A stretch of DNA of 64,000 bases, from NCBI RefSeq assembly GCF_028368995.1, contig NZ_JAQNDL010000001.1:512001-576000 (forward strand), written 5' to 3'. Made by a program: the position numbers and the translations under genes. This stretch comes from Nannocystis bainbridge (GTDB lineage: Bacteria; Myxococcota_A; Polyangia; Nannocystales; Nannocystaceae). The notes below the pieces were generated by a model. It was not told the DNA's origin, did no database searches, and worked only from the letters and a program-made list of their open reading frames with translations. This document shows, in pieces, positions 43,925 through 44,281 of the stretch (the first letter of the stretch is position 1; each line of letters starts with the position of its first letter).

Positions 43925-44281
43925 CACGAGGTGAGCCCGACGCGGCGAAGCCTCCAGAACTTCGGGGAGGCCGAGGGTCCCTGGGGCTTCGAGCCCGGTA
44001 GCGAGTGTGGTCCCCCGAAGTTCGATCTCGATTTTTCTTGGATAATTGTGGGGCTGCGGACTCAAATCGGCCCCACCGCTGCCGGGTTCGTAAGCTGTCG
44101 TACCGCCGTTTCATCCTTCGCAGGGCGAGACTTCTCGGAGGACTTCGAGAGGCCGTGGGTCCCTGGGGCAGCGAGCCCGCGCGTGAGACGAGGCCCCGAA
44201 GTTCGAGTTTGACCTCAAGAGCCCGGACAACTGCATGAGCGTCAGCCAGCTCGAATCCTACAAGGGTGGGCGGTAGGTCAA
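43925..44281 (+). ncRNA. Predicted bridge RNA region: two target-binding loops (43957-44023, 44140-44204) and one donor-binding loop (44209-44281)
   Basis: Stem/guide/hairpin/guide/stem architecture seen three times; guides complementary to the element's own donor and target; transcript ends are estimates. Confidence 0.8.

Follow-up and report, generated by a model that had tools for sequence, protein, structure and literature searches.

The IS110-family element in the 64-kb stretch of DNA analysed here (the window) carries in its non-coding left end two homologous target-binding loops, TBL1 and TBL2, followed by a single donor-binding loop (DBL), and the insertion sites of this element and its relatives indicate that TBL1 is the working target guide. 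Bridge RNAs have been described with one target and one donor loop, whereas here the target loop is duplicated. The reading that we consider probable takes the element to be an active-looking member of the IS110 group whose left end encodes a bridge RNA, with TBL1 acting as the guide and TBL2 surviving as a near-redundant, low-activity or slowly decaying duplicate and not as a second address.

Along the element, a leader is followed by TBL1, a spacer, TBL2, the DBL and the recombinase gene (Table 1). The features of the first-pass annotation were all found at the coordinates given there, with small corrections to the bounds of the element and of the flanking target sequences that are incorporated in the table. 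The recombinase has the domain order that defines the IS110 group, a DEDD RuvC-like domain and then a Tnp domain, with Pfam matches to PF01548 (E 7.5e-23) and PF02371 (E 8.1e-18). Three copies of the element are present in this genome, each 1403 bp long and each with different flanks; they differ from one another at four positions, none of which lies in TBL1, TBL2 or the DBL. A congeneric genome (G038) contains five further copies in two lineages, lineage A with C9 (intact) and C6 (broken), and lineage B with C5 and C3 (both intact) and C7 (internally deleted). The dinucleotide CT is found at both ends of all three copies in the window genome and of the four G038 copies for which the right end was found (4/4).

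Table 1. Coordinates of the element, its predicted RNA loops and its target site within the window.
Feature	Position	Strand	Description
Left target and core	43904..43911	+	GGGTCC and core CT; identical to the left guide of both TBLs
IS110-family element	43912..45314	+	1403 bp including the right-end core CT
Non-coding left end	43912..44324	+	413 bp
Left terminus and 5' leader	43912..43956	+	right donor TGTATG; candidate -10 box TATGTT at 43914-43919
TBL1	43957..44023	+	canonical target-binding loop; model R1, 50.4 bits; handshake-like TG at 44006-44007
Spacer TBL1-TBL2	44024..44139	+	116 nt; T-rich tract at 44031-44039
TBL2	44140..44204	+	diverged TBL paralogue directly 5' of the DBL; model R1, 26.2 bits
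DBL	44207..44283	+	single donor-binding loop; model R2, 48.8 bits at 44210-44278
Recombinase gene	44325..45296	+	323 aa; Pfam DEDD_Tnp_IS110 and Transposase_20
Right end	45293..45314	+	candidate -35 box TTGACG at 45293-45298; left donor ACAACTG at 45306-45312; core CT at 45313-45314
Right target	45315..45320	+	CGCTAC; reverse complement of the six-base part of the TBL1 right guide

In many respects the locus resembles the bridge-RNA system of IS621 as the published accounts present it (PMC11208160, PMC11208158): the shared features include a recombinase with DEDD and Tnp domains, a CT core, a non-coding left end whose encoded TBL and DBL have the form of internal loops with a bulged A, a left guide in the top-strand sense, a right guide that is the reverse complement of the core and right target, donor guides that match the ends of the element, and a candidate junction promoter. 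In IS621 as described, base pairing joins the left guide to the bottom strand of the left target and the right guide to the top strand across core and right target; the handshake guide, two additional bases, pairs with the donor once strands have been exchanged (PMC11208158). The natural right guide of IS621 is reported to pair with the core plus two bases only, and its extension to improve efficiency (PMC11208158, PMC11208160). Unlike IS621, the element studied here has two TBL paralogues separated by the spacer, so that the expectation of exactly one TBL and one DBL drawn from IS621-type elements does not hold for it.

The two target loops are recognized by a covariance model (R1) built from an alignment (A3) of single-TBL loci of 28 recombinase relatives, none of them from the clade that contains this element. 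The structure of this alignment is well supported, with 94.4% of cells paired and 125 cells changed on both sides, values that 0 of 500 shuffles reached. When R1 was run over the whole window, TBL1 and TBL2 were the two best matches (E 1.3e-10 and 2.3e-4, respectively), the next match scoring 14.5 bits, and a DBL model built in the same way (R2) gave one match, the only one above 9 bits. Since R1 matches twice and R2 once, the earlier count of two target loops and one donor loop is correct, and together with the Pfam domains these matches bear out the assignment of the locus as an IS110 bridge-RNA locus. A search of Rfam matched no bridge-RNA family, its sole match being a chance miRNA.

The homology of the two hairpins, also proposed in the first-pass annotation with coordinates that proved exact, is evident from direct comparison, with 48 of 67 aligned columns identical between TBL1 and TBL2. 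The duplicated units span 43944-44025 and 44124-44206 and recur with a period of 181-182 bp, and direct repeats of 31 nt (90% identity) and 13 nt (100% identity) have the same period. From the extent of these units, the duplication probably copied about 82 nt, comprising a TBL and roughly 13-16 nt of preceding sequence. In this genome TBL1 (44013-44025) and TBL2 (44194-44206) have 3' arms that are one and the same 13-mer, and in G038 these arms differ, so the identity could reflect gene conversion between the loops or parallel change. Pairing of the TBL1 5' arm with the identical TBL2 3' arm (inverted pair I3) was also considered, and was dropped because it is not conserved in G038.

TBL1 has an 11-bp outer stem that is 100% complementary, a left guide GGGTCCCT at 43975-43982 (reading GGGTCC-CT), an inner hairpin at 43984-43996 and a right guide GTAGCGAG at 43998-44005 (reading GTAGCG-AG). 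As had been claimed, its guides match the occupied site GGGTCC-CT-CGCTAC, and they do so at 14 of 14 positions. If positions are mapped by analogy to IS621, the handshake UG of TBL1 could form wobble pairs with the donor G and T. The hairpin folds at -37.6 kcal/mol (z -3.54), and 0 of 200 shuffles were equally stable.

TBL2 is the weaker of the two loops by several measures. Its outer stem has 8 bp and is weaker than that of TBL1, its left guide (44157-44164) is identical to that of TBL1, and its inner hairpin lies at 44166-44178. For the right guide, placed earlier at 44181-44187, the family alignment gives a better definition, CGCGTG-AG at 44180-44187, six bases plus AG. Throughout that alignment AG closes the 3' internal loop, and CT is the usual end of the 5' loop. 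The left guide of TBL2 reads GGGTCC-CT, and its right guide spells CT-C(A/G)CGCG. The folding energy of TBL2 is -31.1 kcal/mol (z -1.81), a stability reached by 9/200 shuffles, and across the copies of the clade its R1 scores (19.4-32.2 bits) attain at most the low end of the range for the single TBLs of relatives (32.4-69.6 bits, L026 with 21.6 being the one exception). Two positions of the TBL2 outer stem are unpaired in copies C9 and C6 of G038, and the TBL2 hairpin of C9 folds no better than its shuffles (z -0.15; 82/200 equally stable), while in lineage B the TBL2 left guide is GGTTCCCT even though the sites of that lineage have GGGTCC. With positions again mapped by analogy to IS621, the handshake bases of TBL2 (AC or AU) could not pair with the donor. 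Alongside these signs of divergence, TBL2 occupies the canonical TBL position directly 5' of the DBL and is free of indels in 8/8 copies. A role for TBL2 as a left-junction (excision) loop was rejected, since its right guide would pair with TGTATG through wobbles only.

Folding of the left end as a whole (412 nt) was no better than that of shuffles (z -0.93), and the pairing probabilities of the outer stems in this global fold were 0.07 for TBL1, 0.14-0.43 for TBL2 and about 0.08 for the DBL.

The DBL was described in the first-pass annotation as single, in agreement with the one R2 match, and its guides are complementary to the ends of the element itself, as is characteristic of the IS110 group. 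The left donor guide ACAACTGC (44227-44234) matches the right end, ACAACTG-CT, and the TACA-AG part of the right donor guide CCTACA-AG (44257-44264) matches CT-TGTA of the left end (CT-TGTATG). After the AG comes GG (44265-44266), handshake-like by the same analogy, which complements the final two bases of the left target. The motifs TTGACG and TATGTT, as read from the sequence, would be 18 nt apart across the junction of a circular form and constitute a putative junction promoter, by analogy with the junction promoters described for IS621 and ISPpu10 (PMC11208158; bioRxiv 10.64898/2026.03.19.712850). The candidate -35 box overlaps the stop codon of the recombinase gene. A consensus scan of the linear left end for promoters and terminators found nothing.

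The spacer that separates the target loops was also compared with other parts of the element. Local alignment to the leader, DBL, right end and open reading frame gave no significant similarity, with scores no better than those of shuffles; the DBL model, run with filters off on the + strand of the spacer, gave no match; and BLAST against the genome revealed no second copy. The idea that the spacer is a decayed DBL or a second left-end terminus is thus unsupported by alignments, model and BLAST, and the only resemblance is a weak colinear one seen by eye. The spacer has lost 44 nt in the broken G038 copy C6.

A comparison across relatives was used to place the two-TBL layout. The scan covered 87 loci, made up of the loci of the best 80 relatives (from species-representative genomes) and seven same-family loci, and two TBL matches per left end were found only in rows of the clade (L014, L095, L100, L102, L103, L104 and L075; L014 and L095 do not differ in the stretch compared and were counted once). 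The layout is present in 3/3 copies in the window genome and 5/5 copies in G038. Outside the clade each locus has one TBL, apart from one artefact (L054) and six loci without an R1 match (L025, L043, L048, L055, L073 and L077), of which L025 starts within the left end, and L043 and L048 have left ends of another architecture. The partial second match in L054 (1213-1400, Gemmatimonadales) comes from a full IS110 element that has inserted into the DNA encoding the TBL of another copy, immediately past the right guide. What remains is a first TBL cut short and, after it, a whole left end, so that the match is a product of nested self-insertion and not a duplication. When TBLs were searched for across 73 whole genomes of the family, no other locus gave two matches at E <= 0.001, a threshold that a weak second copy would escape, so that neither the 87 loci nor the 73 genomes show the layout recurring in an independent lineage. 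A metagenome scan with a 19-nt pattern from the DBL junction gave three matches, all of them chance matches in unrelated DNA. Because two matches are confined to the clade, the layout, as far as it is seen in the window genome and G038, is by sequence comparison a derived duplication. The first-pass annotation had named single-TBL homologues as a finding that would count against its proposal; such homologues are indeed the rule outside the clade, while inside it every copy has two.

The nearest single-TBL relatives, three loci of the same genus (L015/L097, L096 and L098), share with this element the terminus TGTATG, the left donor guide ACAACTGC and the TBL/DBL architecture, and the recombinase of L015 is 56% identical in protein sequence. 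Unlike this element, they have a single TBL, which lies about 40 nt in from the left terminus with the DBL right behind it, and they carry other guides, for example TCTGCACT. Their left ends measure about 210 bp, roughly half the length of the left end in the window, and their handshake bases, CA, mapped by the same analogy, would form a perfect pair with the donor.

Insertion sites provide a means of asking which loop guides. The left flank GGGTCC is found at two of the three copies in the window genome (the third has GGGCCC) and at five of five copies in G038. The three sites of the window genome read GGGTCC-CT-CGCTAC (the copy in the window), GGGTCC-CT-CGCGCC and GGGCCC-CT-CGCTCG, and the right targets in G038 are CGCTTT for C9, CGCGAC for C5 and C3, and CGCGGA for C7, all with GGGTCC at the left. 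In lineage A of G038 the TBL1 right guide is TTAGCG and the TBL2 right guide CGCGCG or CGCGTG, and in lineage B the TBL1 right guide is TTCGCG. Right guides of the form (G/T)TAGCG accompany CGCT.. sites in 3/4 cases and the lineage B guide TTCGCG accompanies CGCG.. sites in 3/3, so that an A-to-C change in the TBL1 guide goes with a T-to-G change at right-target position 4. The locus is in this sense a clean natural example of a guide and its sites changing together.

A count of pairs points in the same direction. Across the seven sites scored, which come from two genomes and within a genome are not independent, TBL1 forms 9-12 Watson-Crick pairs out of 12 non-core positions at every site, has more of them than TBL2 at 5/7 sites and equals it at 2/7 (one of the ties being site C2 of the window genome), and no site has more for TBL2 (0/7). 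The base at right-target position 4 is predicted correctly by TBL1 at 6/7 sites and by TBL2 at 4/7, and only the TBL1 guide covaries with the sites. Site C3 of the window genome (CGCGCC) is the one place where TBL2 has an advantage of another kind, with an uninterrupted run of five right-target pairs, one of them G-U, where TBL1 has three; this preference is within chance, given about 36% G or C at each position. On the evidence of the sites, then, TBL1 is the working target guide.

These comparisons also bear on the proposal of two alternative guides for the target. Left guide, core and right-target positions 1-3 are common to both loops, which diverge only at position 2 (a wobble) and positions 4-6; therefore 'two alternative targets' overstates the difference between them, and the proposal is not supported in that form. 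All seven sites are explained at least as well by TBL1. By the standard of the short natural right guide in IS621, both loops would address the same repeat family and would differ in the variant they prefer.

The copy in the window occupies one member of that repeat family, which is dispersed and about 100 bp in length, with at least six empty copies in the window genome and about 24 in G038 (window 43860-43911 and 45315-45400; L112-L139). The repeat is polymorphic at right-target positions 4-6, where G038 mostly has CGCGAC and also has CGCTTT, CGCTAC and others. Insertion into one dispersed repeat family is likewise described for ISPpu10, ISPpu9 and other IS110 elements (bioRxiv 10.64898/2026.03.19.712850, PMC12288879); unlike the ISPpu10 and ISPpu9 targets in those accounts, the repeat found here has a different sequence and often occurs in inverted pairs 0.7-1.3 kb apart, an arrangement reminiscent of the termini of a small non-autonomous element. 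The one pair examined (G000 C4:156642-157956) has no clear gene between its members.

Sequence variability among the three intact haplotypes offers a further view of how the parts of the element are maintained. The proportion of variable sites is 6.0% in TBL1, 7.3% in the UTR, 7.8% in the DBL, 11.4% in the leader, 13.8% in TBL2, 20.4% in the second part of the spacer and 34.9% in its first part (plus 24 gapped columns), with 24.9% at four-fold degenerate sites of the gene. Compared with the latter by one-sided Fisher tests, TBL1 (p 0.0004) and the DBL (p 0.0009) are clearly below neutral variability, and TBL2 is marginally so (p 0.046), evolving about twice as fast as TBL1. The nine variable sites of TBL2 spare the GGCC/GGCC stem, the inner hairpin stem, the invariant CG and the core-pairing AG (0 in each), a classification that was made post hoc.

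That the second hairpin could be a chance G+C-rich inverted repeat and no TBL paralogue is hardly credible: G+C-rich DNA does fold easily, and the left end as a whole folds no better than shuffled sequence, but the direct repeats of common period, the column identity and the R1 match within 64 kb refute this reading, and the hairpin is conserved in G038. The more substantial question is what a genuine paralogue does. Several observations sit uneasily with a TBL2 of low activity, namely its canonical position 5' of the DBL, its freedom from indels in every copy, the sparing of its core stems by variation, its marginally reduced variability, the better fit of site C3, and the fact that by the IS621 standard its pairing would suffice for activity. 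It is possible, if on balance unlikely, that the locus encodes a dual-guide bridge RNA, in which one recombinase and one DBL use TBL1 for repeat variants of the CGCTAC type or TBL2 for those of the CGCGCG type. Beyond the intact loop cores, the constraint and site C3, such a function would account for the match of both loops to an independent family model and for the lineage differences of TBL2, some of which fall in its guides (T/C in the right one, G/T in the left one), and the polymorphism of the target repeat at exactly positions 4-6 keeps this reading alive; moreover, for another IS110 element there is a report of TBL-only RNAs that occur in abundance and have partial activity (bioRxiv 10.1101/2025.10.25.684509). 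Against it, no site needs TBL2, the TBL2 left guide of lineage B mismatches 3/3 lineage B sites, the outer stem has mismatches in G038 C9 and C6, handshake complementarity is lacking, the model scores do not rise above the lowest part of the family range, and the layout is limited to one clade. We favour, on sequence evidence, the reading in which TBL1 guides and TBL2 persists as a duplicate of little activity.

Two other roles for the paralogues seem to us improbable. TBL2 might be a regulatory decoy, binding a recombinase dimer or target DNA without productive strand exchange and so damping transposition, or a folded linker between TBL1 and the DBL, either of which would fit a loop core that is retained while the outer stem and handshake are poor and constraint is weak yet non-zero; however, slow decay fits the same data, no precedent was found in the literature searched on IS110 bridge RNAs, and we regard such a role as very improbable. 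Slightly less probable still, in our view, is an arrangement in which TBL2 and the DBL form the bridge RNA in cis and TBL1 is a separate short RNA that ends at the T-rich tract and acts in trans. The position of TBL2 would suit it, as would the occurrence of that tract after TBL1 in a genome of 71% G+C and its retention in G038, and there are reports that TBL and DBL are separate modules, each with its own recombinase dimer (PMC13626964, PMC11208158), and that a TBL-only RNA exists (bioRxiv 10.1101/2025.10.25.684509). Yet the terminator scan found nothing at the tract, whose T-run lies 8 nt downstream of the stem, an internal promoter was looked for and not found, the candidate region is deleted or diverged in G038, and the sites follow TBL1, which thus cannot be a mere accessory.

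Under the favoured reading of TBL1 as guide and TBL2 as a near-redundant duplicate, the history and activity of the element might be pictured as follows. Part of the left end would have been duplicated internally, the two units recurring at a spacing of about 182 bp. Excision of the element as a circle would, by analogy with IS621, bring the -35 box of the right end to the -10 box of the left end, and the resulting transcript would cover the whole left end. One recombinase dimer would take TBL1, pairing with GGGTCC-CT-CGC(T/G)A(C/A) in the dispersed repeat family, another would take the DBL, pairing with the junction ACAACTG-CT-TGTATG, and the element would insert by strand exchange at the CT core. 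TBL2 would meanwhile keep its loop core, still spelling the same left target, the core and the first three bases of the right target. For other parts of the cycle, published accounts report excision driven by the donor loop alone (bioRxiv 10.64898/2026.08.31.748434) and the geometry of an excision complex (PMC13626964).

Within the literature searched on IS110 bridge RNAs, no report of a natural two-TBL RNA was found; the supplementary catalogues of two sources (PMC11208160, bioRxiv 10.64898/2026.10.21.760802), which lay outside the scope of this search, may hold multi-loop variants, and the latter is a survey of 86 bridge-RNA models with structures that often deviate from IS621. Where the word 'duplicated' occurred in the searched literature in connection with TBLs and DBLs, it referred to the CT target-site duplication. 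The closest parallel is the TBL-only RNA of CazIS110-1, likewise a target loop that can exist apart from a DBL and that is reported to take part in strand transfer (bioRxiv 10.1101/2025.10.25.684509); that RNA is described as a truncated product of a single bridge RNA, whereas the second TBL reported here is encoded in DNA.

If TBL2 works, one recombinase would read two target guides from one transcript, which would bear on multiplexed bridge editing and on how elements change address. A dual-guide RNA would mean that TBL2 opens variant repeat copies to the element, CGCG.. as well as CGCT.., and that duplication and divergence of a guide loop is a natural route to a wider or shifted target range. 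If TBL2 is inactive, the locus would represent a dated snapshot of the duplication and decay of a guide module.

The copies in G038 differ in their state of preservation and in their history. C7 (L103) has decayed through an internal deletion that took out most of the gene, and C6 (L104) is decayed as well, with an open frame of just 387 nt in addition to its spacer deletion; the right end of C6 is absent within the locus because the copy is truncated. The left end of C3 (L102) belongs to lineage B and is almost identical to that of C5 (L100), while its gene is close to that of C9 (L095), with 2.6% difference at four-fold sites versus 10.9% to C5, a mosaic that suggests recombination or gene conversion between copies.
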